From NCBI GenBank assembly GCA_020137815.1, contig CM035352.1, positions 7,998,001 through 8,062,000 of the forward strand: a stretch of 64,000 nt of DNA, in the 5' to 3' direction. The position numbers and the translations under genes were made by a program. The notes beneath the pieces were generated by a model. That model was given only the letters and a program-made list of their open reading frames with translations, was not told the DNA's origin and made no database searches. Source of the DNA: Hormiphora californensis. Lineage: Eukaryota; Animalia; Ctenophora. The number at the start of each line of letters is the position of its first letter. The stretch's first letter is position 1. Shown piece by piece: positions 2,501-64,000 of this stretch.

Positions 2501-5500
2501 TGGACGAGAAGGTATTGTTTCGTTGCCCGGGAGTGTCTGTTTGTTACGTCATCAGACGATACCCTGGAACCCATCTGTGAAGTTCCCCTCCTCTCAATCA
2601 ACGTTAAACCAGACCCAGGTATGTGTTGAGTTGTTACCATGGTAACCATGTTATCATAGTAACTATGGTCGTAATGAGTGTTCCTTCTCAAACTCACATT
2701 ACAAACATCTCCCTACAGAACTAAAGAAACCGTTTGCATTCCGATTGAGCTCTGAACGGCTCGGAAGGGATTTATTGTTGGCTGCAGAGAGTCAGTGTGA
2801 ATATGAAACATGGCTGAAAATCTTCACGGACAGGGCTGTGCCAGCTTCTATTCTGGCACTCAACAAACCAAAGGTAATTGAGGCGTTGCCATGGTGACCA
2901 AAGGGGGCGTGACGTCACACATGATGATGACATTAAAGTGTTTTAGGGTCAGGTCTTTATTTAGTGTCCTTATCGATATTTTGCATAGGTTCCCAAAATA
3001 CCCATGTTTTCACATCATGTCGCTAAAACCCCACCTCTTCATGCAGGTTATTATAGGATTCCTGAGAACTCTCTTTCTCTCAACCTCTTTCTCCAAACTC
3101 TTTCTCTCCCACACTCCCTCTTATTATTTCCACTCTCTCCACTCTCATCTTTCAAAACTACTATCCCCCGTCTACTGCACTCCCCGGTTTCCCCTCTATT
3201 CCTCTAAACTCCCTCTTCTCCCCACCAGATAACCCGAGTAGAGGTAGCACCGCCAGTAGCCGCATCACGAATGAAGGAACTAGCGCACACAACCGGACTT
3301 CTATTCCGCCTCGTCGACAGGAACTGGGTCTGTAGCTGGTGTGCCCGTCACCACTCAAATCTCCTTCTTTATGACACGGAGAACTCGGCTCACCCCTTCC
3401 GGTCTATCAAGTTGTCTGGGTGTGAGGTTCTTACTGACACGTACAGGAGCGATCATGTGTTCCGGTTTCTAATCACGCCTGGAAATAAAACAGAGGTAGG
3501 TTCGCTACATTTTCCCATCATAGTGGGCAGACAGGTGATAACTATCACGGTTAACTACCCTCCACTTCAATATCCTAGGGATTGCCCCACCCGCCCTCCT
3601 CTACGCCTACATATATAGCGTTAGGCGCTAATAATAATAAGATCCTATACCATCAGGCGTTGACTCTGGGGACAGAAAACCACCAAGAGTTTGAGAAATG
3701 GCTGGCCAGTTTCAGAAGTGCAACCAGTGTCAGGTCTGCTAAGGAATGTGTTGCAGAGGATGATCTGAGGAAGAGCGGGGACAGACTGGAGAATAGCAAT
3801 CAGAGCCTACCTGCTGAAAGGTGAATTATTGTTACAAGCGAATAATTATTGTTGAGTTACTCAATAGGTGAATTAGGGAAAACTGGAAAGTTAGTTAGAG
3901 CTTTGGAAAAGTATTATTGCAGTCTGATATAGAAGGGGAGAGAGAGATAGAGAGATGGAGAGATAGAGAGACAGATATAGACTTAGAGATAGAGATAGAG
4001 AGATAGAGAGAGCGATATTAAGTGAACTGAGTTAAAAGTATTAGCAGCGTCAGAGCTGGGGAGTGGGTATATAATAAGAGACATTTCAACACTTTGTTGA
4101 AGCTGATTTTGTTGTTGCCCTCCCTCCATCTCTCTCTTCCTGCTAGTTGACATGCCTACCTACACTCTCTCTGTTCGCCTGTACACTTGCAACCACCACT
4201 GGTACTAGTAGGGGAAGTCGCTACAGCTTTTCTAATCCTCAGGGGGGGGGGGGGCTGTGCTGACAGGGTGTATGGGGGCCAGGGGGTCTGTGATGAAAAG
4301 AAATACTGTATATTTTTGGGCACCAAGAATTGCTAGCTAACCCTTCTCTCTCCGCAGGTTCACCTCAGGGTACGGTAGTGGTGATAGTCTAAACAGTATA
4401 GGTAGTGGTGTCTATGAAAACACCAAGAGTAACCGGAACAGCACTGATTATGAAGATTACGTGAACACTGAAACCGCCTCACACCACATGGTATGTTGTT
4501 GTAGTTACCATGGTTACATGTGTGTTGTAGTTACCATGGTTACATGTGTGTTTTGGTACCATGGTTACCGTGCAGTGGTTACCATGGTTACTAAATGAGT
4601 TACTAAGACATGTTCTCCCCTCGCAGGTTGAGGAGTGGGTTGACAGCGTCCACAGGCACCTTCCCCCTGAGAGACCAGAGAAAACAACTACATCGTCGGA
4701 GAACATGAGCTCATCACGTGACAATGTCGTTACGTCACGTGATAATGTCGTTACGTCACGTGATAATGTCGTGACGTCACGTGATAATGTCGTTACGTCA
4801 CGTGATAATGTCGTTACGTCACGTGATAATGTCGTGACGTCACGCGATAATGTCGCTTGGTCATCGAAAGACAACATCAAGGCCTCCTCGAAAGACAGCT
4901 TCAAGTCTTCCTCAAGGGAAAACATCAAGGCATCCTCAAGAGAGAACATCAAGACATTCCTCAAGAGAAAACATCAAGACTTCTTCAAGAGACAACTATC
5001 GCCCCTCCCCCTCCCTCAGAGGTCAAGATATCCAATATCCCCAGCCATCATGATCCCACCCCTGAGAAGAGTTCCAGTCGATAACAGACCATGACCAGGA
5101 ACTATCCATCCTCGACAAGCTAATCCCGGAGTTGGACAGTCTAGATCTTGTAACTGATCAGGAGTTTGAAGGCGATGGAGAGAGAGTTCGGGACGGGAGA
5201 GGGATTGTTAGCAGACGACCCAGCTGAGTTTCCATTTGAGGACAATGTCCTGGAGATACTGGATCAGGGACCTAAATTATCGGACCAGATCTTGGAGAGG
5301 AAGGAAGACTGATAGGAGATCTAGAAAGTCTTCTTCTTCATCCTCTTCATCTTCTTCATCTTCAAGCTCCAGTTCCTCATCCTCATCTCTTCATCTTCTT
5401 CCTCAGCCTCGTTACCACCTCCCCCACCTCCTGAAGACCTTCCCTCACCACCTGATCAGACACCACACAACACAGTCTCCCGGTTGTCATCCCTTGATAA

Positions 5501-19095: not shown

Positions 19096-19721
19096 GTAAG
19101 TTAATTTAGTAAATTATTTCATTTAAAAAGTTTCTTAGCTTTTGGATTTCTTACTCTTGTGGTTTCATAGAAAAACGTTTCTTATCTAAGAGTTTAGGAT
19201 GGAACATCAATCAGTCCTTCTCTAGATATCTGTCTGGGAAGGATTCAGCAAAATCGGGAAAAATTTGGTAAAAAGTGACCCATCTTCATACGATTCCTTA
19301 TCTCAGATATATTCCCTAACATAACACAGATTAACAATACATAATGCAGGGCCTGGCAAGGCCCACCCCGACCCCGAAAATAAACCAAACTCAACCCACC
19401 CAATAAAAAGACAACACAATTACTGACAGTTATAGTCGGTAAGTAATTGGTAATTATTAATTACCCAATTAATTACTAATTAACTTACCACTGCATCGAT
19501 GAATACACTCGTGCATATATCCATAGCTGCTAGATCACTATATGAAAGAGGATTTGATAAGATAGTGCGAAAAGAGATACATCGCAGATAATTGCTAACA
19601 AGCACATGTGTGCAGAGTTAGCAAATACTTGCAAAATACACACGTGGTACGCAAAATACACACGTGGAAACTGTTAGAAACTACAGACAAACTGACAAGG
19701 GTTTAGATACATATAATATAA

Positions 19722-21290
19722 ATAGGCCAGTCGTATGACGTTTATTTCTGGACATAAAAGTTGTAAATCTAATTCCACTTCTATTGCACTCTAATAGGTC
19801 CCTAGAAACACCACAAAAACAGCCCGGTCGGTACGTGGGGGAGAACTTGCCTTAATTGGGCCTAATTGGTTACAGGGTATTTTCAGCCTGAAGCCAAAAC
19901 CATAAGTACCCTTAGAATAGGAGTAGAGAAAAAACCAAGGGCATTAAAGTGATCAGCGTCCTCGCATTAGTGGGGGTAGACGCCAATGAAAAGTCTCTAT
20001 CTCATCTGGTTAATTAGATAATTGGATAATTAGATCTGTGCATAGCCGTTTTTGGCCATATGGCTATAGCCACTTAGGAATGGTTTAGAGACTTTTCACT
20101 GGTGCCATTTTGTAGGCAATGGCCAAGTTATGGGGGGTCGACGTCGGACTTTTAAGCTCTATCTCCAACCGTTTAGCCGTTATTTGACTTTAAAAGTGCT
20201 CAAAATGAGCAAAAAACGGTAAAAAGCCCGATTTTTAGCACATTTAAAGCCGAATAACGGCTAAACGGTTGGAGATAGAGCTTAAAAGTCCGACGTCGAC
20301 CCCCCATAACATGGCCATTGCCTACAAAATGGCACCAGTGAAAAGTCTCTAAACCTTCCTAAGTGGCTGTAGCCATATAGCCAAAAAACGGTTATGCGCA
20401 TAACTAATTATCCAATTATCTAATTAACCTGATGAGATAGAGACTTAAAGGGCCTAAAAACCCAAATTTTATTTAATTATTTTGAACACTACATCGTAAC
20501 AAGCATGCTATAGGAGTCCCAAAAAACATAAGTACACGCCCCACCCGCCCAATGTGAGCCCAGGGGGAGCCCCTCAAGTTGGGGCCCAGTCGGGGTCCCC
20601 TTGTAAACGCGCTTGTACTCCTTGAAATGCTAACAATATGATCCTCTCTGAAATTTGAAGTTTTGGGTAAAATTTAGCATTGTGTTTCAGGTGAGAACAT
20701 AATCTTTCTTGTCTCTGTATTCTGGTAATTTTTCTCCTAGTTTTGATGACTTAAACAATAATTGATGAGAAAGATTATGAAATCTACTAAAACACAAGGA
20801 TAGTTTCTATTTTATATTTGAGAGAGGATCATATTGTTAGCATTTCAAGGAGTACAACCGCGTTTACAAGGGGACCCCAAATGGACCCCAACTTGAGTGG
20901 CTCCCCCTGGGCTCACCTGGGGCCCGTGTGGCGTGTACCTATGTTTTTTGGGACTCCAATAGCATGCTTGTTACGATGTAGTGTTCAAAATAATTAAATA
21001 AAATTTGGGTTTTTAGGCCCTTTAATTCCAGCATCTACCCCCACCAATGCGAGGACGCTGATCACTTTAATGCCCTTGGTTTTTTCTCTGCTCCTATTCT
21101 AAGGGTACTTATGGTTTTGGCTTCAGGCTGAAAATACCCTGTAACCAATTAGGCAAGTTCTCCACCACGTACCGACCGGGCTGTTTTTGTGGTGTTTCTA
21201 GGGACCTATTAGAGTGCAATAGAAGTGGAATTAGATTTACAACTTTTATGTCCATTTTTATCTAAATCCGACGTCATACGACTGGCCTAT
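19722..21290. mobile_element. Foldback (palindromic) non-autonomous element of about 1 kb, centre near 20220, right arm interrupted by a nested MITE
   Basis: Termini ataggccagtcgtatgacg / cgtcatacgactggcctat. 19722-20215 is the reverse complement of 20225-20448 plus 21022-21290. Confidence 0.9.
20449..21021. mobile_element. TTAA-flanked MITE with long TIRs (Kolobok-like AG...CT ends)
   Basis: TTAA|agggcctaaaaacccaaa ... tttgggtttttaggccct|TTAA, with about 200-bp inverted arms. Confidence 0.85.
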
Positions 21291-21363: not shown

Positions 21364-24300
21364 TTATTCTGAGTCAGACAATGATCTCTGTTCTTCTATC
21401 AAGTAGAACACAGCGTTCTGAAAGTTTGTCAAACAGTATCCTTCCTTCCCCTTCAGCTTCCTGAAACACAGAATTAATCAATAACTTAATTATAATTATT
21501 AATCCCATTAATGTTTTAACAACCGATGGCCTACAACCCTATATGTACAGTGTACATATAATGGAGAGTTTGCCTTTCCTCGGTGTACCTTTATTCCCCA
21601 TTACTATCAGCACTAGACAACCTAACACTTCACCCTAATTCTCCCATCACTTACTCTTCAGGTGTCACGCTGTACAACATTAGTAACTCGGGATATAGAT
21701 CAGGTATGTTGGCCTGTGCTATTAGGTATATTGTAACAGGAACTAGATCATCGGCACCCATACACGACACTTCTCTAGCTTTTTCCTCACTTAGACCTTG
21801 GAGGGAAGTGGGGTAAAACAGGAGGGGGGAGGAGAAAGTGGGGTGAAAATGAAGGGAGGGAAGTGGGGTAAAAACGGGGACGGGGTGAAAGGTGAGTACA
21901 ACGTAGCCGTTCGTAGGGGAGAAAGAGCTAGTGGCTATATTGAATCTCGCCTAAATTACACATGGTTTCACATTGGCGGGTATCATGTACTACCTGATTG
22001 CATAGCTAGACCCTCTTTACAAATGTAAAGGAGGGTTAGAAAATATCACGTACCTGATGCAATGTGGTGATTATAAACACATTCAGGTATCTCCTGGTTG
22101 GACTGTACTAACAGTGCCATCTTCTCTTCTGGGGCATGAGTGTCACCGAGCTTGCGGAGGGTTTCTATAGCAACCGAATAATCAACCTTGAAACTGAAAT
22201 GTTTTATTGATCAGTGGAGTTGAGAGTAGCTGCTGTTTTTTATTCTTTCGAATAAGAAAAAGGAATATCATTCTAAAAAGATATAATAATATGCCATAAA
22301 TTATGAGCTTTATCTTATCAATGTTGTAGCATATAATGTTTTGCAAACTTTATTCTTGGGAAAATTCTAAAAATCTTATTTTAGCAAGAACCATCACTCT
22401 CTGCTTTCTCTCTATTCACACTAAACTACAGTGCAGTACTATTCATACTTATTTCCTCACTTGTCACGGATGTCAAGGTAGTGCTCAACAGAGAGACTAG
22501 AATTGCGTTGTAGATAGGTCTGGTACAGTGTGTGATCTGCTTCGTACGACGTGGCATACATCTTGATAAGTAGCTTCAAGAAGGGGCTGTAGAAGGTACG
22601 AGCTAGTTGTGCACTAGTTCCACGCTGATCTTCCTGTTATAGGAAGCTTGATATTAGGGGGCTTTTATTAGGAAGCTGGGAGACTTTATATTTAGACTCA
22701 ATCTTGGTCTCTGCACAGTAAAGGAAAAGTGGCTTAACAAAGCAAGATAAGATAGAAAAGTGACAGGTAAGGGTGTTTTGACAAGTTACCTCAGATAGTT
22801 CCTTGAGGAGGGGGTAACACCCATGAAGTACTGTCAGAATATTCCTGAAGTAATTCATAACATCATCACTGATCATCTCCAGTTCAGCAGAGATCCCTGG
22901 TCGCAGTACCTCCCTTTCATCCGCATTACCAAGATACATCTGATGGGAGAGGGGTGAGGTGGAGACTGGAGAATGGAGAGGAGAGAGGGGGAGAGGCTAG
23001 GGATGAGAGGAGAGAGAGGTTGAGGGATATGGGATTCGAGTGTAATTTAGTAAAACGTTTACCTTTTTATCAAGTGTATTCAGTCGGTAGAAGAAGTTAT
23101 GTTGTGCCTCTCCTAACGCATGGTATAGAGGGTGGTGTGGCTCTTGTAAACACCTGAATCATTGGTCAGTCAACATGGGTTGGGTTGTAGTGCGAACACA
23201 GTATCAGGCGACTCAAATCTTGCCTTGTTCGACCCTCCTTCCCCGCGCCCCGCGACTACAAAAATAAAATATCAAGAGTTTGAACAAAACAACTCAAATC
23301 ATGGCCATGGGTCAATAATTCATGAACTCGTTCACAAACAATTCACTGATTTCATAATGAAATTAGGCCCTTACCATCTCAGTATTGTTTGTGCCTTTTC
23401 CTCAGTACTCTGACCCGTAGGCCACACTTTATTCTGTACATCATATGCCATTACTGCTTTTATCAGAGCCCGCACTTGATCCATTTTAGCTAGTAGAATT
23501 CCTTCAAAAGTACAAACTACCGGTGCAGCTGCGGTCCCCTCGACCGATTCCTCCGCAGCTTCCTGCTCCAACCTCTGTTTCCTCTGTTCCGCCTTCTTGG
23601 CTAGGGTCGCTTCCAAACCCTGGGCTATTTGAAGGTTTTCCTGTTGTCTCCTAGCAAGTTCCAACCTGTCTCTGGCAGTTTGGGTCCTTCTCCTGGCATA
23701 CTGGGCACTGAGCTGGGCGTTCTGCTGTCTGGCCCTTTCTAAGGGAGATACTCGGAACACTACAGGGTTGGAGACAGTGCCACCTAGGTTAGCACCCACT
23801 GGTGCTGCGAAGTACTGGAGATCCTCAGGTGGTGGGGGTATGGAAGTTACAGCTGCACGTGCAATAGTTGACAGGTGGGCTGACTGGGCAGTTGGGGGTC
23901 CTTGAGATGGTGGGGGAGAAATAAATGAACGTCTTGGGGACTGTTGCGGAGATGGTTTTGGGGACGGTTTAGAGGGCGGTGGATTGGACGGTTGGTTCGG
24001 GGTAGAGGGCGGTAGATTGGACGGTTGGTGCTGGGTAGGGGGTGGTTTTGGTAAATTTGGAAGGGTTTGACTCCGCTTTACAGGAGCCTTGTACTTAGTT
24101 CCTGGCTTGTTGGCTGGTACATCGGGTAGAGAGTTGAGGATATCGAATATGTCGTCTCCCAGGGACTCCTCAAACAAGTCTCCTTGGCTTGAGGTCGGGA
24201 GAGTGGTAGAGGTTATTGTTGTAAGAGATGGAGCACTGATCGCAATCCCAGGTCCACCAGATTCATCCTCCTGGATGGTAGATCGAGGAGGCTCAACAGT

Positions 24301-24774
24301 AGGCACAGTAGCAGGATGGCCAGTAACAGGTTCTATAGCAGGTTCAGTAGGAGCCACAGTAGCAGGATCAGTATCTGACACAGTAGGGGGCTCAGCAGTA
24401 GCAGTAGCAGTGTTTTCCTTGGATGAAATTCGTCTTGAACTCTCCAAACACATCCCCGCCAAGTCCAACATCTTCTTTACACCAGGATCATCTTTATTGT
24501 TCTCTTCTGAAATGAGGTGGAATGTTTCAAAATGGGTGAACACAAACCGAAACAAATACACGTCATTTAATACGGGGAAGTCAATTTATTTATTATATCA
24601 GTGATCCCAATTTGATAGTATTTCTAATTTCTAACTTCTAAACTCACGGAGAAGTGATGTGCTGATGAATGAAAGTGTTCCAATATAGTGTCTGTAAGCT
24701 TCCCCCTCCTCTCCCCTCTCCTCGCACTGCAGAGCGAACCCAAGACGTTGATAGGCCTCCAGAACAGCACTCAT
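21364..24774 (-). CDS. VPS9D1: VPS9 domain-containing protein 1 (MIT-like N-terminus, coiled coil, VPS9 Rab-GEF domain)
   Basis: MSAVLEAYQRLGFALQCEE...EAYRHYIGTLSFISTSLL; KMLDLAGMCLE; SPLERARQQNAQL...RRQQENLQIAQ; VPS9 motifs GADDLVPVTIYLIAQANIP and GKEGYCLTNFQNA. First exon 24774-24648, large exon about 24507-23375. Confidence 0.9.
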
Positions 24775-25560
24775 TGCTTCAGGTTATGGTTTATAATGTC
24801 CAACTTATCTCGCAGCTCTCCTATCATTTCAGCCCCCTGGCAGGTCAAAATAGCCCTGAAGTAGAGACAGGTAGTTGGTACAAAACTAGAGAGGCATTTC
24901 TAGTTATACATGATGATACAAAACTTTTACATTTTAAAAACTTGTATTGTAGTTTTGGTACAAAAGAGAGATGCTGAATTCGGAAAATCTATAACCACTC
25001 AAGATAGACAACTGACTAGGGACACACACATCTATCATGCTCTCTCCTAGTTAAAAAAACAATCTCACAAAATACACGACTTACTGGTTGTCTATACTCG
25101 TCAACAACCGACCAATGCTGGAGAGGTTCTGAAAATGTGTTTTGAGTATTAGAAACAAAAAGCAAATTCTCGGAAAGATTCTCACACGATTCAACTGTAG
25201 TCTGGGGGTAGGTTGATGCTGGGTGGGGCTGGGGTGGGGGTGGTATGTATCTTACCGTGCTCAGAGAAGTAAGGCTGCTTTCTTGACTGCTCAAACTCTT
25301 GGCACTTTTTGTCAGCACCTGGAAACAAACAAACGGCTTTTAAAGTGAAAAGCCTTGATATGAATATTCTGAACATTTTGAAGTTAATTCTGACCCAGTT
25401 TCATCAAAATCGGGGCTGTTCTCTCTCAGCCTATTACCTCCTGAGCTTGTGAGTTTTTAACACTGTTTCGGACAATTTTAGAGAGTTCAAAGATAATTGC
25501 CTGTGAGTTTTCGTTCAGTTTATCTTTGGTTTCCTTGCTTCGTTCACGAGGTAGGCTCAT
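24771..25560 (-). CDS. BORCS7: BLOC-1-related complex subunit 7-like, 104 aa
   Basis: Exons 25560-25438, 25318-25256, 25128-25085 and 24855-24771 join in frame: MSLPRERSKETKDKLNENSQAIIFELSKIVRNSVKNSQAQEVLTKSAKSLSSQESSLTSLSTNLSSIGRLLTSIDNQAILTCQGAEMIGELRDKLDIINHNLKQ*. Size and pattern resemble BORCS7. Confidence 0.75.
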
Positions 25561-26819
25561 TAGACATACAACAACTAAAACTTTGATAAAACTTTGAGTG
25601 GTACGGCTCAATTTAATTTAATTAACATCGCTTTTCAAATTCGAAACCCAAATTAATCTGGCACCGTTACGATCGGGGTGTTTACAGGCCTGTTTACAGG
25701 TGCAAGCTGCCAAAAAAGCACCCTAAAATGGCTCTAACCACCAACGTCTAAACCACTCAACCGTTTTGGCTGATCCAGTTTATCTGATGGCAAATATCAA
25801 TCCCAAAGTCCGAACCCCAACCCGAGACCCAGGTCCAAGCCCTAACCATAAACCTAAAAAACCGTGAGTTTTGGCACTCAAGACACCCAGATTTTAACGT
25901 TTCCACTTTCCCAAATGAAAAATTTAAAACCTCGCCTTGGCAAACGCTGCTGGCCCCCGATAGCGCGGGATAAGGCAGCGCTTTTCAAAATCTCGCCTCG
26001 ACTTTTTAAAAATTCTGAAATTTTTTTTAAAAGTCAGAATTTTAAAAACTTGGATCCGCGCGCGCGCCTTACCTTGTCACGCGCAAAACCAGAATTCCCG
26101 CCGCGCGCACCGATTTTACGCCGCGCTTGACGCTGAAAAATTGCTGCTTGAATCTACTCAAGTTTTTTAGACTGGACATTTTCAAAATTTCGCGGACACT
26201 ATTTGTCCCTCTGGCCTTAAGGCTTCCAATCTCTGTGCCCTAAAGTCCGTTTCAAGCGACTTGACCCGTAATTCTTGGAATTTGGCGCATTGCGCGTGTA
26301 TTTACAAAGGGGAATCCTGAATTTCCAGGAATCTCAGGTCAAGTCGTTTGAAACGCACTTTAACACTATTGACAACACCATGGTACATTCAGCAAATTCG
26401 GGGTCCTTTAAATTCTGTTTTGATTTTCAATTTAATATTGAAAAAAGGCGACAAAATGTCCTAGGAAAAGGCGACAAAATTTCTCCAGTGGTAAAATCAA
26501 GTACATATATGATAAAAGTTGAAACATTTATTTTTGAGACATAAAAGGAATACTGTTAGAGTCATGTTTTGGTAAGCAGTAGAGTTTAAACTTTAAACTC
26601 ACTGTCCGAAGAAGCACGACGGGCGTGATAATCACCCACTACCTAGGTTATAAACACGCTGTGATTATAATACGGTTGCCTTGAACTTTGAAGCATGTTT
26701 ACAGGTGCACGCTACTAAATAGAATCCACTCATACTGACTTTTTTCAAACAGCTAGGTATAGCCAGTGGCTATTAGCCACGCAACCATATGGCTTATCTG
26801 TATCTGATAGAGAATCGAT

Positions 26820-29147: not shown

Positions 29148-31236
29148 ATGGCACGTCGACTTGGAATGCTAAGTCTAGCTAACCTGAACCCATGCGTCAA
29201 GGAGATGCAGTATGCAGTTCGGGGTCCAATTGTTATTAAAGCTGCTGAACTGGAGGGACAACTAAACAAGGTAGGCCAGGGGGCAACTGATAAAAAGGGA
29301 GGCCAGTGCAGTAGTACATAATTGAAATAGGTAGTGGGCAAAAAGGGAGGGAGAAAACGAGTTGTCCAGCTAAGTTGTGCGTATGTACAAGACACGAGGG
29401 GCATTATTATAGTAAATTAAGTGGTAAAACAGTTCTAGACGTGAAGCTAGAAACAAGCTAGTGTCAATTAATAATTGAAGGGGCACTAATTGTGTACCAC
29501 ACATACGCACAGTAGTACGACACATAGTTTTACTGCTAAACTATCTTGCATTTTGGTATAATAGCAGTCTAGTACTAAGCTGCGGCAGAGTCGGAGTTGA
29601 GAGAACAGAGTTGACATAAAATAATGTGTTTTAGCTGCATATTACACGGGGGGGGGGGGGGGGGGTAAGTGTTTTTACAGTTCATGAGTTGTTCATAGGG
29701 CGGTTTCTAAGTTTCGTGGAAGCCGTTTCTCTGAGCCCTTCCGTGTGCTAGCTGGAGAGAGAGTTCTGAGAAAAATATAAAATGAGAGGAATTAGGTGAA
29801 GAGAGAATCTGCATGGAGAGAGAATCAGTATGGAGAGAGAAGAGAGAAAAGAGAAAGTTGTATGGTAAGCTGTCACCAAGCAAAAGCGGGATGTTCAATT
29901 TACCACAATAAAAAAGAGGGGTGTATCTGGTGTAAGAACATTAAACGTTTCGGTCCAAGATAAAAGTAATGTGTATATTGAAAACTTGACACGACAAGAC
30001 AAAGACTTAGACAAGACAAGACAAAGGGATAGGTATTATAACAAAAGGAGAGATAACTTAGAAAATATGGCATGGATATATCTTGGTGTAACACCCTGCA
30101 TACAAATCACACACAGTGTCATGTTTAGCATTGTTGTTGGGAGAAGCAGATTCATGAATAGTAATTGAGTGGCGGGGGACATGTGTTGTCAGATATATCG
30201 GGATAGTATTGGTATCTGTCATTAGTCAAGTGAGAAAGAGAGTGAGGGAATGAGAGGGAGAGTAAGGGAGAGAGAGATATAGAGTGAGATAAACGAGTCA
30301 CGAGAAGAAGATAAGAGAGAGTATTACAAATTGAACTATTAAGAGGGAATATTATTAACTTTACCGAAATGATTCGGAGTTCGCAACACCCACCCGTCCT
30401 AACACACCACCCGTCCTAACACACCACCCGTCCTAACACCCTCTCTCCCCTCCAGGGCGCCAAGTTACCATTTGAGCAAGTTATCAAAGCCAACATTGGT
30501 GATGCACACGCTATGGGCCAGAAACCCATCTCCTTTGTAAGAGAGGTGATCGCCTTGGCAACTTGCCCATCTCTCATGGATACTGCAACTGGGTTCAGCG
30601 ATGATGCGGTGACAAGGGCTAAAGAGATTTTGGGATCAACTGGGGGAGGAAGTGTTGGTGAGTTTATAGGAGTCTATAATAGTCTCGGTTGATGATGTTC
30701 AAATTAAGGGAATAGTATATGGGCTACAACACAGAATTCACTAAACAATGATCTCCACCTCTCTATCTATCTCTCTATCCCTCCAATCAACTCCTAACTC
30801 CACCTCTCTCTCTCCAGGTGCATATACTAACTCAGTTGGTATTTCCACTGTATTGAACCACGTTGCTGAATACATCACCCAGAGGGATGGTTACCCCGCC
30901 AGCCCTTCCGATATCTTCCTGGGTACTGGTGCTAGTGGCTGCATCAAGGTATAACGTGTTTTACAACGTGTAGTTCAGTTCTTAGTTTGTTCATCTATCA
31001 AATTATGTTACACCAACCTCCTTTCCCCATACTCATCTTGGTTTTCGAAACATCCTCACTAACATTTAGCTGTGCTATAGTTTACGCAGTTTGATTCAAT
31101 TTGATCCCACCCCTCCCCAGAATATTATGAAGTTGTGCCTGACTATGGATGCAGATAACAAGCCTGGATTCATGATTCCTGTACCTCAGTACCCGCTATA
31201 CTCAGCTTGTACCGCTGAGTTTAACGCTCACCTGGT

Positions 31237-31321
<85 letters not shown>

Positions 31322-32528
31322 GGGGGGAGTTGGTCCACCTGCCACCACCTCCAATCGGTTTCCCCCGGGCAACGGGGTCACACGGAGTACCTTTTTCCCC
31401 ATCCCCTTTTCCCCCTGTTCGATTTCCAGGTCCGTGTGGCCGCGGCTGAGCGTGGCTGTGTATCAGAAATACGGAAAAAAAATCAGAAAATACAAAATAC
31501 AAAAACATCTTGGCTAGGCGGTCCACAGTGTATCAACGCCAACTACTACGTTCCTACCCCGCCTTCTCCGGCTCAGGGTTACCAGTGGAACAGGCATCTT
31601 CCAGCCAACTGTGGACCCCCAACGCCCCTTTATCCACTAACCCGCTAACCAATACTGTTTTTGTTCTACTGGCCCCCCTAACCCACTTCTTCCTTTTTTG
31701 ATAGGGTTCTACATCGGAGATGATTCTTTGGAACGGGGTGGCTGTCCTCTCTGGAGCGGGGTCGGCTGTCCTTACTGGAGCGGGGTCGGCTGTCCTCTCT
31801 GGGGCGGGGTGGCTGTCCTCTCTGGAGCGGGGTCAGCTGTCTTTACTGGAGCGGGGTCGGCTGTCCCTACTGGAGCGGGGTCAGCTGTCCTCTCTGGAGC
31901 GGGGTGGCTGTCCTCTCTGGGGCGGGGTCAGCTGTCTTTACTGGAGCGGGGTCAGCTGTCTTTACTGGAGCGGGGTCAGCTGGCTTCTCTGGAACGGGGT
32001 CAGCTGGCTTCTCTGGAACGGGGTCAGCTGGTTTCTCTGGAGCGGGGTTGGCTGTCTTCTCTGGGGCGGGGTCAGCTGGCTTCTCTGGAACGGGCTGGCT
32101 GTCCTCTCTGGCTCGAAATGTAATCATCATCCATTTGTATTAATTTATTATTTTTTTCGCTCGAACCCGTTCCTGCTTGTTTTAGGCTGCCTTAGATCCA
32201 GACGGTTTGCTTCTTCAGTTCCTGATAAGTTGTCTCTTCTTAGAATACATTGTAGCAGATTGGGCTTCTTTGCAGATAGTTTAGGAGGTCTTGTGCTCCG
32301 TCACCATGAGCTTTAATCCCACTTTACTTCCCCTTTTTAATATCATCCCCTTTCCTTAACCCATATGTACATTGTTAAATTTACCCGTATGTACATTGTT
32401 CTACCTACCCTACCTTTACTCCGCAGGCCCTCCGGGCCCTCAGATCCAACAGGATCCGGGTCCGGGGGATTTAACCCTGCTCTCGCATGGGGCCTCACGG
32501 CCCCATGTGGGAGTGGTGCGTGTAGTGG

Positions 32529-32577
<49 letters not shown>

Positions 32578-33987
32578 ATTGCTTCCTTGTTTTTATAGAC
32601 GCATAATATGCACACGTCACGCAAATATCTCTCTTTTTATCTGAACAAAACCTGGACCAACAATGCTTGAATTTTCTCCACGTCAATTCTTTTTCTCTCA
32701 CAGCTGCATCTTTCTATCTCTCCATCATTATCTCCAACTATCTCACAATCCCCCTCCATATTTCTCTCTCCTGAGTCCTCTCTATTTCCAGATAAGTTAC
32801 TTCATGAATGAAAGTAACAACTGGACTTTGGACAGAGCTGAACTGGAACGAGCCTATGAAGAGTCTCTGAAACATTGTATCCCTAAAGCTATCTGCATCA
32901 TTAACCCAGGTATGAAACTTCTGGAACATTCTGCACACAGTAACACCACAGCTGTTGCTGCATAACGAATGTGTTATATTCGGCATCGCGCTTCTGGACG
33001 ATATTATGCAGCTCTTGTTTTAAGGTGCTGCGCGCTGTTACCGAATGCTTCCCTTGTGAAGAAAGCACACTCATTTTCGCGCGCCCTAACATCGGAGCGT
33101 GGGAAAAGTTCCCACGGTTCAAACCCGCGCTGACAAGCGCTATCCCCCACGCGGCATATTGCATAACAGGATTTAAGTAGGTGTTATGTTATAACCCCAC
33201 CCATGTTTCAGGCAACCCTACTGGCCAGAACCTGCCTGCCGAGAATATAGCCGAGATAATCCGGTTTGCACACGATAAACAGCTGCTGATTATGGCAGAT
33301 GAGGTCTACCAGGACAATATCTGGACAGAAGGGGATAATTTCACGAGTTTCAAGAAAGTTCTACGATCTCTCGGACCTGATTTTGATGACCAACCTCTAG
33401 CATCGTTCCACTCTGTCTCAAAGGGTTTCATGGGGGAATGTGGGCTGCGTGGTGGATATTGTGAAATGACCAACTTCCCCGAAGATGTTAAGACCATGCT
33501 ACTAAAACTGATCTCTGCCAGTCTATGCTCCTCGACATCTGGTCAAGTAGCAGTGAGCTGTATGGTAAAACCTCCTACAGGGGACGCCAGGGAGACATAT
33601 GATCGGGAGACCAAGGCTGTCCTGGCGAGCCTCAAAGAGAGATCTGTGATGGTACATGAAAAGTTGAATGCTATCCCGGGTATAAAGTGTAACCCCCTGC
33701 AAGGAGCAATGTATGCCTTCCCCGCCATAGACCTCCCCACTGGTGCTATTGAAACTGCCAAGTCACAGGGGATGGAGCCTGATTTCCTATACTGCTCGGA
33801 GCTACTAGATGCAACTGGGATTTGTGTGGTCCCGGGCAGTGGATTCTGGCAGACCCCTGGTACCTACCATTTTAGAATGACCATTCTCCCACCTAAGGAC
33901 CAGCTTGTGGTGTTTTTGGACAAGTTAGCCGAATTTCATGGACAGTTTTGTGAGAAATATTCTGATGTTTCTCCTCTGGGAAGTTGA
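29148..33987 (+). CDS. GPT: Alanine aminotransferase (PLP-dependent)
   Basis: Exons 29148-29270, 30456-30657, 30818-30948, 31121-31234, 32792-32909, 33212-33987. Motifs MQYAVRGPIV, ANIGDAHAMGQKP, PVPQYPLYSA, INPGNPTGQ, ADEVYQDN, SFHSVSKGFMGECGLRGGY, GICVVPGSGF. Confidence 0.97.
31323..31456 (+). ncRNA. HDV-like self-cleaving ribozyme (predicted)
   Basis: P1 GGGGGAG(31323-29)/UUCCCCC(31360-66); P2 GCCACC(31341-46)/G(C)GUGGC(31450-56); P3 ACC/GGU with 7-nt L3 UCCAAUC; P1.1 GG followed by GCAAC; P4 CGGGGUCACACGGA/UCCGUGUGGCCGCG; J4/2 G-C(31446)-UGA. Confidence 0.8.
31727..32111. repeat. 23-24-bp GC-rich minisatellite (gctgtcctctctggagcggggtc[a/g])
   Basis: About 16 degenerate tandem copies visible. 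Confidence 0.92.
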
Positions 33988-36449: not shown

Positions 36450-54390
<17,941 letters not shown>

Positions 54391-58140: not shown

Positions 58141-61100
58141 TAGAGATATTACCACCACACACAGCATTACATACCTAGTGGACACTGATCAGTCTCATGA
58201 TCATCGAAGACATCACAATGATCACAAAACACCCGATCTGGCACAAAGTTAGGTGCCCGGGGAGGGGGAGAGGATGCACCACTCAGATTACTCAAATCAT
58301 CCACGTCCTCAAATGACATGCCGGGCGGGGAGTTGAGCCGTTGTTCCATCTCGTTAGCACGTGATCTCTCTCTGACTACCTCCTCCTCTAGGTCGTTAAT
58401 TTTAGTTTGAAGCAGCTTCATCTTGGACATGGCTTCCGTCCTAGGGGTGAGATTGTTACTTTAACTAGGGGAAGAGTAGGGGATGTCATACTTCTTGGGG
58501 GAGGGACTAGGGAGGACACTCTTTTCCACTTACAGTTGAAGTTCGGTTGTACGAAGGGAGGCAGTGAACTGATCCTCATTCTTCTTCAGCTCAGTAAATG
58601 CTGTCTCACTGATTTCTCTGAGAGTTGATACCTCACCTGTTAGCTCATCAAATTCCTGGTTCTACAGGGGGATTACATGTGATGATCTGGTTTAGGGAGA
58701 ACGGGGCAGAGAATCTAGCCTAGGAGAGTATTGTAGGGTGCACTTTGTCTCTTTGCTTCACTGTCTGATACACATGTTCACAGATATAATTCTCACACAC
58801 ACGTCCCCATGCGTGCATTTGTTATACCAGTCTAGTGTCTCTGTCAGTTATTATTTCCCACGCTTCAATCATCGATATACCGTCAACACTCTAAACTCAG
58901 ATGATGTCACAGTGGTGGTAACCATGGTAACATAGTGGTGGTAACCATGGTAACATAGTGGTGGTAACCATGGTAACAAAATGGTGGTAACCATGGTAAC
59001 ATAGTGGTGGTAACCATGGTAACAAAATGGTGGTAACCATGGTAACATAGTGGTGGTAACCATGGTAACATAGTGGTGGTAACCATGGTAACAAAATGGT
59101 GGTAACCATGGTAACATAGTGGTGGTAACCATGGTAACAAAGTGGTGGTAACCATGGTAACATAGTGTTGTTGTCTGTCAATACAAAAACAGCTCAGTAT
59201 AATAATACCTTCTCTTGGAAGGATAGTTTCAGTATTTCATTCTCCTCTGACAGGTTGCTGATCTGCTTGTGAAGGTTCTCAATCTCCTCATCCGATTGCT
59301 GAGGAGAGAGAGGAGAGTGAGTTGAAAGGTGAGGGAGGAGAGTGAGTCGGTCAGCGCGGTATAGATTAGGGTCAGGACACTTCAGAGAGTGAGTTGAAAG
59401 GTGGGGGAGGAGAGTGAGTTGAAAGGTGGGGGATTCCGGATTTGGGTTGATACAAGCGAGGAAGGTGGGGGGAGGGCCAGGGGTTGTGGAGGGTGAGGTG
59501 TGGGGGGTTGATATAAAAAATCACGGTTAGGGCATTCAAAATGGTAAAAAGAAGAGAGACGTAGCTCTGGTTTACCTTAGCATCACACTCCTCTGCCAAC
59601 TCCTTCATCTGTGCTTCACTCTCGCTCAGTTGAACTCGCATCCTCTCCAACTCCTCGCTCAGCTCGGACACCTTTTGCACGTGAGCCTCTCTCTCGGCCG
59701 TTACCTAGGCAACAGTGTGTGACGTCACTATGGAGATGATAATGACGTCATTACAGCAGGATAGGATGATCAAACATGGACAAGATATGTGGGTGGTGGA
59801 GGTTTCTGATTTAACCATGCAGAGGGGGTTTCTGATTTTATATTTATTGATTTGTTAGAAGGGGGGGGGTGACACGTAACACTTTGTAACACTTTGTAAC
59901 ATGTGCAGAAAACTTTTTGTGCACGTTACATGTTACAAAGTGTTACAAAGTGTTACAAAATGTTACAAAGTGTTACAAAATGTTACAAAGTGTTACAAAA
60001 TGTTACAAAATGGGCATTTTTTGCAACATTTTGCAACATTTTGCAACATTTTGTAACACTTTGTAACACTTTGTAACACTTTGTAACGCTTGTAACACTT
60101 TGTAACATGTGCAGAAAATATTTTGTGCGCGTTACATGTTACAAAGTGTTACAAAGTGTTACGTGTCACCCCCCTAGAAGAGACAGGTGGACAAAATACA
60201 CATGCGCCTAAAAACTACCACAGAGTATACTAAAATGTACATGAGCGGATAGAGCTGAGAGGGGGTTGACACACTTACAAGTACAACTTTGGTTCCCACT
60301 TAGACAAGACACGATCAATCTAAAAAGTGGGTCGCTGGCTCAGTGCCAAAATACTATATTTGTCATATTTTGAATGTGGCTGAGAGCAGAGGAATTATTT
60401 TTCAGGGGCTCTAATAAATGGATGAACTGGTCGAATGTGAATCACTAACTCCAAGACATCAGATTATTGGTGAGAGGTATCCCTCGATTATCATGCACAC
60501 AGCACACCCCCTCTCTTACCTCTGCTAGTTGCGTCTCAAGTTCAGATATCCTCGTCTCCCCTGCCTTCCTCACCCTCTCCATCTCCACTCTCATCACCTC
60601 CAGTTCACCCTGCAGTCCCTTCTCGACTCCATCCCGCTCCTGAGCAGAATCCTCCTTCAGCTTAGCTAACCTGCCTTCCAGTTCATCAATATTAGCTTCA
60701 AGAGATCGGACTAGCTCAGCATGTTCAGCACTCTCTTCCTCCCGCTGTTTCGTGACGTCAGCGAGGGCCTGTTCTGATTTGGCCAGTGCTGCTTCTGTTG
60801 GTGCTAGTTTAGCCACCTCGACCTTCAACGTAGCAATATTGTCTCTCAGTTCAGTAGATTCCTGAGTTAACTTGGTTATCTCTGCTGTTTTCGATTGCAG
60901 ATCACATTCCTTTGACTCAGCGCTGGCGAGGGCTTCTCTCAACTGCTCACTAAGTTCACTGTTCACCTTCTCCATCTCGATCACCCTCCCAGCGGCTCCC
61001 TCCTTCTCTCTAGCCAACTCCTCTCGAAGCAGCCCCAGCTCTTCATTCTGTTTCCCAGCCTCGACACTATTCGCTGTTTCAGTATCCCGCAGAGCCGTCT

Positions 61101-64000
61101 CCAGTTCAGAAATCTTTTTGTGAGCTGACAGGATCTGATCGTTTGTGTCATTGGTACTGGATGACAGGAGGGTCTCCAACTCAGATACCCTAGCACCATC
61201 CCGTTCAGCTTGTTCCTGTAACCGGGTGATATCACTTCCAGCTCGTTCTAACTCTCGTTCCAACTTGCTCCTCTCACTCTCTCCCTCTGATGTTAGTTTG
61301 GCCAACTCCGCTCGCAGGTCTGATATCGTGACATCACGTGATGTTATATCATCCGCCATTTGACCGCTATTCGTCTGCGATTCGGTTGCTAAGGCAGCGT
61401 GGGACTCCCTGAGAGTGGCCATGTCACTCTGCAACTCCTCATAGTTCTGTTGAGTGGTAGAGTGTTTAATATCAAGAGCAGCGAGGGCCTCCTTCACCCT
61501 CGATAACTCTCCCTCTCGTTCCACCATCTCCCTTTCAAGGTTCTCCAGCGCTGTCTTCCTGTCTCCCAATTGGGTCTCCAGCTCTAACACTCTATTCTTT
61601 AGCTCAACTGCGATCTCAGCCTCTTGACCTCGTTCCAGTGCCGCTGTCAACTCCTCCTCAAGCTCTGATAACCGTGTTTCGTCAGTGTTCCGAGAGTTCT
61701 TGAGGGCCGTAACCTCAGCAGACAGCTCAGCGACCTGTTGTCGCGTCATTTCAAGTTCAGCTCCTGCTGTGTCAGAGTGTAGGAGCTGTTGTTCGAATTC
61801 TTCCACTTTCTCCAGTTGGATGGTTAGATCAGATTCCAAGGTGGCGATCTGATCTTGAAGTTTGGTCCTCTCTGTTGTGTGATCTGATCTGAGAGATTCC
61901 ATTTCGGAGAGAATATTGTTGAGTTTATCGCTCAGCTCGCCCTTGTCCTTATCAGCCAACTGGAAGGGGAGGACATGGTTAAAATTGGGTGAAAAGGAAA
62001 CAACGAAACTCCCAGAAAGGGCATGATCTGGGAAAGGTAAATGCATGTAGTTCTCTTATATTTTGTCATTATTATTACATATCATGTTTGTAGATGTTCC
62101 AAAGCTGCTCTTACCTCGGCGACATGAGTAAGCCTTGTTTCATATGTTATCCTATCATTTTCAGCTGCCTTTAATTTATCATTCAGCTCATTTCGTTCCC
62201 TCTCACTCTGTGTGGAAGAGAATGCACATTTAGTCCCCCGAAAAATTAAAAGATCGGAATGGGATCGGAATCTTGGCAAGTCCTGATTAAAGTGCAATTC
62301 TCTATTTCTTACCTCTTCGTACATCTTCTTAAGGTTGTCATACTGCTCACTCGTTTGTCTCTGGGGAGTCTGGAATGATATGTAGCATTAGAAGATGAAG
62401 GAGGGAGTTTAGGGCATGATATAATACATCGCAGAGGAGAGAACACTTGTTATATTCTAACCCTCCTTTACATTAGTAAAGACAGAGTCGAGCAAGGCAA
62501 GCTAACACGCTGCTGTTGAAAATGTTGTTCACACTGTGCTTCACACACACAAAGATTCTTTACGACAACATGATAGAGTACTAAGCGAGAATTCTAACTA
62601 ACTACAACACGAAGAAGAGAAAAGGGAGAATTCTACCACGAAGGATCTAAAAAGGAGAAGATTCTATCACAAAGGATCTAAAAAAGAGAAGATTAAGGAA
62701 AGGTGGTAGCACTGCAGGGAACACCACCTCTTTAGATTCCCCTCTTCCATTCATCCTCTCATTTACATCACTTCTCCGGCCCGCTGCTACTTTTAGTGGC
62801 GTCCTGAACACATCAAACAGTGTCTCGTTTGATCTAGATCTATCCGCAACAACATCATGATGTCCCCGCTCGCTATTGGGCCTCCTGAGCTCATCATGCC
62901 CCTGATCATTGGGGGTTCTGGGCCTCCTAAACTCCAGTGAGGGTGGTCTGAGGAGTCGACTCCTGGCTGTTTGCTGCTGATCGGCATCTTCTGAAGACTG
63001 TTTCCGACGTTTTATTCCGAATGTGGTAGCAATTAGTGATGTCATATCGTTTCTAGTTCTTAACGCGGCAGAGAAATCAGGGACCATGTTTAGGGATGGA
63101 GGTGGAGATGGAGAACGGGTGTTTAGGTCACCTCCCTCAAATAGATCCGGAGTGGCGAGAACAGATCTAATTCCACCCTCCGTCTCCTCAGATTCCGAGA
63201 GAGAAGGAGCTCTGTTGTCTTGGGTACACAGCTGCAACTGCTGGGATCGAACAATCTGGACATCTTTTAGAAAATATTGGAGGGAATAGTTCGCACACTC
63301 TCGCACATTCACGTTCTATTGAGATGATCGGAACTCGGGAGGGATGGTACTCACTTCACACACTGCTTCTTTCTCTCACAAATCACACATGCTGTTCTTC
63401 ACACTTGCTTCCATTGCTGCTGCTAACCAGACACCTGTGTTCGAACATGTTCCTCACACACACGCTGCACGCATGGATGAATGGGAGGGACGCACGCACG
63501 GAGGGAGGGTGCACACATGTGTTCTCGCACTGAATCACCGCACTTAACCACACTCCGGTCTCTGCTATACTTACATGTCCATTCCTCTTGTTGACCTCAC
63601 TAAGCCGCTGCTGTAGATCCCCAATGTTCTTCTGCATTGACTCAATATCACGACTCTGTGGTAGAATACATAACGTCACACACACATAGCAACCCCACAT
63701 AGCAACAACATTTATAGCGCGTGGTAACCATGGCAACACGTTACCATAGCAACAACATGGTAACACTCACCTTGCTCCTCATGATCCCAGAGAGAGATGA
63801 AGTCAGTCCGGGCGTGCTGACAGGAGTATTTCTAGCTGAGAAATCAGGTTTCATAACATCTGGAGAGGTAACCTTCCTACTTGGTGTATTTTCTATCCCA
63901 GCAGGAGATGGGATCCTCTTCAGTGCGGTATCCATGGCAGGGGACATGATTCTACTACCGGCTGGTGAAATGATACCCTTCCTGCCAGAATCCAGGGAGT
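57479..64000 (-). CDS. CLIP1: CLIP-170/restin-like coiled-coil protein with C-terminal zinc knuckles; N-terminus (expected CAP-Gly) outside the window
   Basis: Long heptad-rich exon at about 61960-60520. RVFCDHCDVFDDHETDQCP and GRPYCSVCE match the CLIP-170 knuckles. The last exon is uncertain. Confidence 0.8.
58912..59166. repeat. 22-23-bp tandem repeat with the palindromic core ggtaaccatggtaac
   Basis: About 11 copies in a CLIP intron. Confidence 0.95.
59861..60174. mobile_element. Small foldback MITE of 10-bp tgttacaaag repeats
   Basis: TIRs ggggggtgacacgtaacactttgtaac / gttacaaagtgttacgtgtcacccccc, flanked by tagaa(g) on both sides. Confidence 0.8.

Follow-up and report, generated by a model that had tools for sequence, protein, structure and literature searches.

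The genes for a BORCS7-like protein and a VPS9-domain protein overlap by four nucleotides in the ctenophore Hormiphora californensis, and both open reading frames (ORFs) are likely carried on one bicistronic mRNA. In the window (the whole stretch of DNA analysed, 64,000 nucleotides of contig CM035352.1), the sequence ATGA at 24771..24774 of the minus strand contains both the upstream ORF's stop codon (TGA, 24773-24771) and the start codon of the downstream ORF (ATG, 24774-24772). The overlap sits in a single exon (24648..24855, minus strand), flanked by AG on its acceptor side and GT on its donor side, which holds the end of the BORCS7-like ORF (to 24771) as well as coding exon 1 of the VPS9-domain ORF (from 24774). 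This arrangement had been proposed from the DNA letters, and is borne out by both gene models. The 4-nt overlap of the two coding regions is unlike the genes of spliced-leader-resolved operons, which are separable.

The BORCS7-like ORF is an open frame of four exons and 104 amino acids that runs from 25560 to 24771 on the minus strand. Its first coding exon (25438..25560) opens with the ATG at 25560 and is followed by exon 2 (25256..25318), exon 3 (25085..25128) and the coding part of exon 4 (24771..24855), which belongs to the shared exon; the frame is maintained throughout, and the joints of exons 1 to 3 are found in both RNA runs described below. Pfam scans were done exon by exon, exon 3 being too short to scan. 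Exon 1 has PF16088 (BORCS7) as its sole Pfam match (E = 0.0069, residues 7-41 on profile positions 12-46), with a score of 17 bits for the exon scanned by itself against a curated cut-off of 27.3, and exons 2 and 4, scanned singly, gave no Pfam match. The length of 104 amino acids compares with 103 positions in the PF16088 profile. A profile search with exon 1 through 1.84 billion representative proteins returned four, one of which is repetitive and was set aside as unrelated. The remaining three, all representatives of clusters at 50% identity, are 55-62% identical over exon 1, their similarity stops at the same exon 1 end, and for each of them the best Pfam match is again BORCS7 (E = 0.0097-0.057). 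The upstream gene is, therefore, likely to be BORCS7, a subunit of BORC, which is described as acting in lysosome movement.

The VPS9-domain ORF extends over eight exons from 24774 to 21364 on the minus strand, and encodes 683 amino acids without an internal stop. The coding part of its first exon (24648..24774) lies in the shared exon, and exon 2 (23375..24506), which is largely Pro/Thr/Ser-rich, is supported by RNA joints as well as by its frame. Exons 3 (23063..23153) and 4 (22790..22939) are in open frame, with introns 2-4 spliced in RNA, and are followed by exons 5 (22461..22633), 6 (22054..22193), 7 (21655..21796) and 8 (21364..21460), also in open frame, with introns 5-7 predicted from GT-AG boundaries and frame. 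The C-terminal VPS9 domain is distributed over the last three of these, as positions 3-35, 40-69 and 80-101 of the PF02204 profile match successively on exons 6, 7 and 8, each match being below the cut-off when scored singly. VPS9 domains are Rab activators. The original prediction named the gene VPS9D1, which is a putative name, and what is supported here is a VPS9-domain gene; protein searches that took exon 1 and a portion of exon 2 as queries found no named relative. Searches by sequence of the ESM Atlas and the PDB gave no usable match, and single-exon protein searches together with metagenome, prokaryote-genome and viral scans found no relatives of the locus.

A related species, less than 90% alike in this region, provides a comparison for the first VPS9 exon. 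One of its contigs (X3, 324 nt) matches 24726-24664 and reaches 139 nt upstream of that match, past the ORF junction, of which 30 letters are shown. Judged by eye, six of the ten residues encoded immediately upstream of the match are kept, four of the six through a change at the third codon position, and the ten codons downstream of the match stay open across VPS9 intron 1. This codon pattern, together with the open frame, suggests that the first VPS9 exon looks to be coding and renders a start at 24774 plausible.

RNA evidence for the locus comes from X1 and X2, two runs that a single study obtained from seawater and that yield near-identical contigs at a depth of about 3. These runs are equal in size and may not be independent, and their status as RNA is deduced from spliced joints and from a leader sequence. 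Joints are present at all three BORCS7-like introns in both runs; of the seven VPS9 introns, the first has a joint in both runs and the next three (2-4) have one in X1. At this depth no RNA covers exons 5-8 or the interior of intron 1 of the VPS9 gene, which is not counted as evidence. One X2 contig (record 5) contains all three BORCS7-like joints and extends to 24732, 39 nt beyond the stop codon, with no differences and no gaps. An X1 contig (record 2) begins at 24786, 12 nt before the VPS9 ATG and hence within the BORCS7-like coding sequence, and splices into VPS9 exon 2 with no differences over the junction. X2 record 5 shares 55 nt with X1 record 2 and 26 nt with X2 record 4, and neither run has a loose end between 24855 and 24506 at a depth of about 3. 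Overlapping spliced contigs from X1 and X2 tile the locus; none of them includes joints from both genes, and a contig spanning two genes is not in itself proof of a single transcript. Because the overlapping spliced contigs tile both ORFs, one mRNA is the simplest reading. The earlier suggestion that one mRNA serves both proteins is thus strengthened by the tiling contigs and by a leader ahead of the upstream ORF, and falls short of a single molecule seen to hold the two.

The 5′ end of this mRNA is formed by trans-splicing. In an X2 contig (record 6), 18 nt hang loose at 25582, and together with the genomic AG they equal, by eye, the final 20 nt of the leader that PMC8527503 prints for Hormiphora californensis, a match that by itself would assign the window to a ctenophore, probably of this genus. 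On the evidence of this one contig, the AG at 25581..25582 (minus strand) is a trans-splice acceptor, the body of the mRNA starts at 25580, and the 44-nt leader is joined 20 nt ahead of the BORCS7-like ATG. No leader is seen at or after 24855, or before the VPS9 ATG, in X1 or X2 at a depth of about 3. A second AG (24838-24837, minus strand) lies 19 nt inside the shared exon behind a good pyrimidine tract; its use is not seen in RNA, and splicing there would throw BORCS7 out of frame and bring it to a premature stop overlapping the codon for Met87.

Three AUGs lie between the leader and the VPS9 start, at 25567, 25560 and 24827. The one at 25567 is the first of the mRNA and opens a 7-codon ORF (25544..25567, minus strand) that runs out of frame over the BORCS7-like start and has a T at −3; this short ORF could damp BORCS7 and pass ribosomes downstream. 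The BORCS7-like AUG at 25560 has a C at −3. The AUG at 24827 is an internal in-frame codon (Met87) with a G at −3, and defines an 18-codon ORF (24771..24827, minus strand) that ends at the overlap. The VPS9 AUG at 24774 has a G at −3, its frame contains a stop four codons ahead of it, and residue 55 is the next Met in that frame. Start contexts are judged here by the general rule of a purine at −3, which may differ from that of ctenophores; by this rule, a short 5′ UTR (20 nt after the 44-nt leader) is combined with a weak context of the BORCS7-like AUG. Between the BORCS7-like and VPS9 starts there are no out-of-frame AUGs and one in-frame AUG, Met87. The upstream ORF thereby has one internal AUG, where 4.2 would be expected at the density of the downstream ORF (p = 0.078), and a test of AUG depletion by codon shuffles gave p = 0.36, which is not significant. 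The scarcity of AUGs is suggestive, not significant.

Of the ways in which both proteins could be made, leaky scanning with short-ORF reinitiation fits best, translation of both ORFs being a prediction. We incline, with little more than even confidence, to a leader-bearing bicistronic mRNA from which the VPS9 protein would be made by scanning past, or by restarting after, a small number of upstream AUGs. The 40S subunit would load at the leader cap and meet only three AUGs before the VPS9 start, and those at 25567 and 25560 would be leaky, each having a pyrimidine at −3. Ribosomes that initiate at 25560 would make BORCS7. Others would bypass 25560, or would scan onward once the 7-codon ORF had been translated, and would arrive at Met87 or, about 290 nt downstream, at the VPS9 AUG. 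Initiation at Met87 would lead through the 18-codon ORF to termination on the ATGA, where a new start on the AUG that overlaps the stop is plausible. The ATGA would then be what is left after an intercistronic spacer was lost, rather than a viral-style coupling device. Single-gene isoforms may be present alongside as minor products, as they are at most fly dicistronic loci. A more elaborate version, in which the ATGA is conserved across ctenophores as a working relay that hands ribosomes from the 7-codon ORF to the Met87 ORF and then to a restart at the overlapping AUG, seems doubtful to us. Were it true, the ratio of a BORC subunit that positions lysosomes to an endosomal Rab activator would be fixed.

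The two proteins could instead be supplied by two overlapping single-gene mRNAs, which we regard as rather unlikely. The VPS9 mRNA would then arise from a leader joined at the 24855 acceptor (or at 24838-24837), or by transcription that starts in intron 3; it would carry the 18-codon ORF over its start, and the BORCS7 mRNA would end in VPS9 intron 1 or contain VPS9 sequence solely as 3′ UTR. A single pre-mRNA could yield only one of these two mRNAs, given that their coding regions overlap. According to PMC8527503, the leader is found on at least 56% of the long reads from Hormiphora, and 12 and 11 pyrimidines are found among the 15 bases upstream of the AGs at 24857-24856 and 24838-24837. Monocistronic alternatives are common in flies according to PMC4528330, and the Ciona operons described in PMC7986045, which are nearly spacerless, are resolved through trans-splicing. 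Against this, 24855 is cis-spliced in both runs, without a loose end, and X1 record 2 remains genomic across the AG immediately before the VPS9 ATG. The original prediction had raised a trans-splice at 24855 that leaves an 18-codon upstream ORF; the 18-codon ORF is real, whereas both runs show cis-splicing at that site at a depth of about 3. It had further held that the arrangement leaves no room for a polyA site. There is indeed no gap between the ORFs, but AATAAA occurs twice in VPS9 intron 1 (at 24589..24594, minus strand, with a second copy that starts at 24590), and is a candidate polyA signal for a BORCS7-only mRNA. This signal is weak, as the hexamer is commonplace (4 of the 10 introns, 3 of them among the remaining 9 introns of the locus), and VPS9 intron 1 is spliced out in both runs.

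True coupling on one mRNA, in which ribosomes that end the 104-aa ORF would restart at the overlapping AUG in the manner of caliciviruses, and VPS9 output would be tied to that of BORCS7, is in our estimation quite improbable. AUGA is a documented stop-restart geometry (PMC10275272), certain viral cases lack the UGGGA motif according to PMC5972666, and the in-frame Met87, with its purine at −3, counts against pure scanning, which it would hinder. The viral-type coupled reinitiation first envisaged is nevertheless disfavoured by the sequence: UGGGA (motif 1 of the TURBS element), searched for through the whole upstream ORF, is absent, and the junction region (24855-24700) folds worse than its shuffles (z = +1.87, 200 of 200 shuffles folding at least as well). 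A TURBS element was rejected on these grounds, and with neither a UGGGA core nor a stable structure in place, leaky scanning with short-ORF restart is favoured over coupling of the viral type. The insect and algal bicistrons that have been put to the test also favoured scanning over reinitiation (PMC2978622, PMC11291117), and some of the algal loci in that scanning set have an overlapping stop and start as well (PMC11291117).

A BORCS7-VPS9 fusion protein, whether explained by an error in the sequence, a ribosomal frameshift or an alternative splice, is the least credible of these possibilities, and we consider it very improbable. The two frames do abut, and a shift within the last four codons would join them, the in-frame stop of the downstream frame being only four codons ahead of the VPS9 ATG. 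The concern that a 1-nt error might conceal a fusion was answered by the RNA contigs, which cross the ATGA with no differences and no gaps in two runs; since they read it without mismatch or gap, a fusion hidden by sequence error is unlikely, and was rejected. Programmed −1 frameshifting typically uses a slippery heptamer of the pattern X XXY YYZ. No such heptamer is present in the upstream ORF, and the frameshift that had been offered as one route to the second protein was, therefore, rejected, the stop ahead of the VPS9 ATG also speaking against it. Alternative splicing can be reasoned away on phase, as the upstream donors have phases 0, 0 and 2, whereas the AG before the ATG and the acceptor of VPS9 exon 2 need phase 1. 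Readthrough of the BORCS7-like stop was likewise rejected, because another frame lies behind that stop and readthrough would not enter VPS9.

Two-gene mRNAs with a start/stop overlap are a type already known in flies, and the arrangement in Hormiphora is not a new mechanism. FlyBase annotates 159 dicistronic pairs, and at 114 of the 159 loci one or both genes also have a monocistronic form (PMC4528330). File S1 of that paper contains 28 overlap rows, corresponding to 14 pairs, of which two overlap by 4 nt and five by 1 nt. The 4-nt pairs are moi/Tgs1 and CG33649/DNApol-gamma35 (PMC4528330, Files S1 and S3), and Moi and Tgs1 are reported to be made from a single mRNA (PMC7605716). Like the locus described here, these pairs combine a small upstream gene with an unrelated, larger downstream gene through a 4-nt start/stop overlap, which, going by its geometry, must be ATGA. 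They differ in that other genes are involved, and in that the Hormiphora mRNA bears a trans-spliced leader and its single-molecule evidence is indirect. The rarity in animals of ATGA overlaps, implied when the locus was first noted, was thus overstated, given Drosophila dicistronic pairs with the same 4-nt overlap.

Flies offer a parallel for the upstream gene as well. CG18065, named as fly BORCS7 in a preprint, is listed in File S1 of PMC4528330 as di- or polycistronic only, located upstream of CG13430 (SP70) with a spacer of 235 nt. The same file has Drosophila Snapin and Muted on dicistronic mRNAs with unrelated partners. As is proposed for Hormiphora, genes for BORC/BLOC-1 subunits are thus dicistronic, and fly BORCS7 is also the upstream member of its pair. 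The fly loci have spacers (235, 18 and 5 nt for BORCS7, Snapin and Muted) instead of an overlap, and the partner of fly BORCS7 is SP70 and not a VPS9 gene. Because the partner differs and the fly genes are separated by spacers, the BORCS7 dicistrons of fly and ctenophore look like convergence, rather than shared ancestry of the pair. There is a hint of enrichment of BORC/BLOC-1 genes among fly dicistronic genes, although blos, Pallidin and four CG numbers presumed to be other BORC/BLOC-1 genes gave no match in File S1. Small proteins are over-represented among fly dicistronic genes (PMC4528330), and the dicistrony of BORCS7, Snapin and Muted may stem from the small size of these proteins and not from a common function. 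If the relay discussed above were real, the fly BORCS7, Snapin and Muted loci would make BORC/BLOC-1 subunits repeated passenger cistrons across the deepest animal split.

Leaky scanning has been shown for fly stoned and Snapin and for a silkworm tricistron (PMC2978622). For the two fly genes, that paper reports that the absence of an in-frame internal AUG is necessary, whereas the silkworm tricistron tolerates one. Green algal bicistrons use leaky scanning, some with overlapping stop and start codons (PMC11291117; green algal bicistronic loci are covered in PMC7896298 also). They share a short 5′ UTR and a weak first start context with the Hormiphora mRNA, as well as few upstream AUGs, a scarcity that in Hormiphora is suggestive and not significant; the Hormiphora mRNA has, in addition, the 7-codon ORF and the in-frame Met87 upstream and for which scanning is a prediction. 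The AUGA stop-start geometry is shared with the TURBS-dependent reinitiation of caliciviruses and influenza B (PMC10275272, PMC5972666), from which the Hormiphora junction differs in the absence of UGGGA motif 1 and of a predicted structure. Hydra RFC140-flp (PMC3273482) and the operons of Ciona (PMC7986045) are also tightly packed genes in organisms that use a spliced leader. In these operons, the downstream gene receives its own leader and the coding regions are separate, whereas in Hormiphora the leader is seen ahead of the upstream gene only, and cutting the transcript 5′ of the VPS9 AUG would leave BORCS7 truncated.

The interest of the locus lies in its lineage, in a leader that is able to split the transcript but is not seen doing so, and in the parallel with fly BORCS7. 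If the bicistron is real, mature bicistronic mRNAs would extend to ctenophores, which are early-branching animals, and an unsplit two-gene mRNA would be informative there, since the ctenophore spliced leader could split it. In the open-access literature, judged from search listings, no report was found of bicistronic or polycistronic mRNAs in ctenophores, nor of a BORCS7 and VPS9D1 gene pair; a search that combined BORCS7 with cistron terms yielded none naming BORCS7 among the matches listed (the best 25 of 1,164). The words polycistron, operon and bicistron do not occur in the main text of PMC8527503. Annotation that allows one ORF per transcript drops one of two such genes, which bears on claims of gene presence and absence in ctenophores. 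The locus, furthermore, is a compact system in which scanning and reinitiation could be told apart on a leader-capped mRNA.

Several other features were observed in the window. Just past the 3′ end of the VPS9 gene, at about 19700-21270, lie repeated blocks with near-duplicate ORF translations (19791-19943 with 21071-21265, and 20473-20673 with 20791-20997), and short X3 contigs match 21200-21259; these repeats are probably a non-coding repeat family. On the plus strand, an exon with a PH domain (Pfam) is found at 3208-3615, and a spliced class I/II aminotransferase gene, which we presume to be alanine-aminotransferase-like, occupies 29149-33984 (Pfam E = 6.8 × 10−20 at 33181-33984). A spliced gene on the minus strand, at about 28500-27400, is arranged head to head with it. 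A protein kinase gene (Pfam Pkinase) has exons at 37859-39111 on the minus strand, and 58170-62055, on the same strand, contains a 536-aa coiled-coil ORF followed by a match to the CLIP1 zinc knuckle (E = 0.0002), possibly marking a CLIP-170-like gene.
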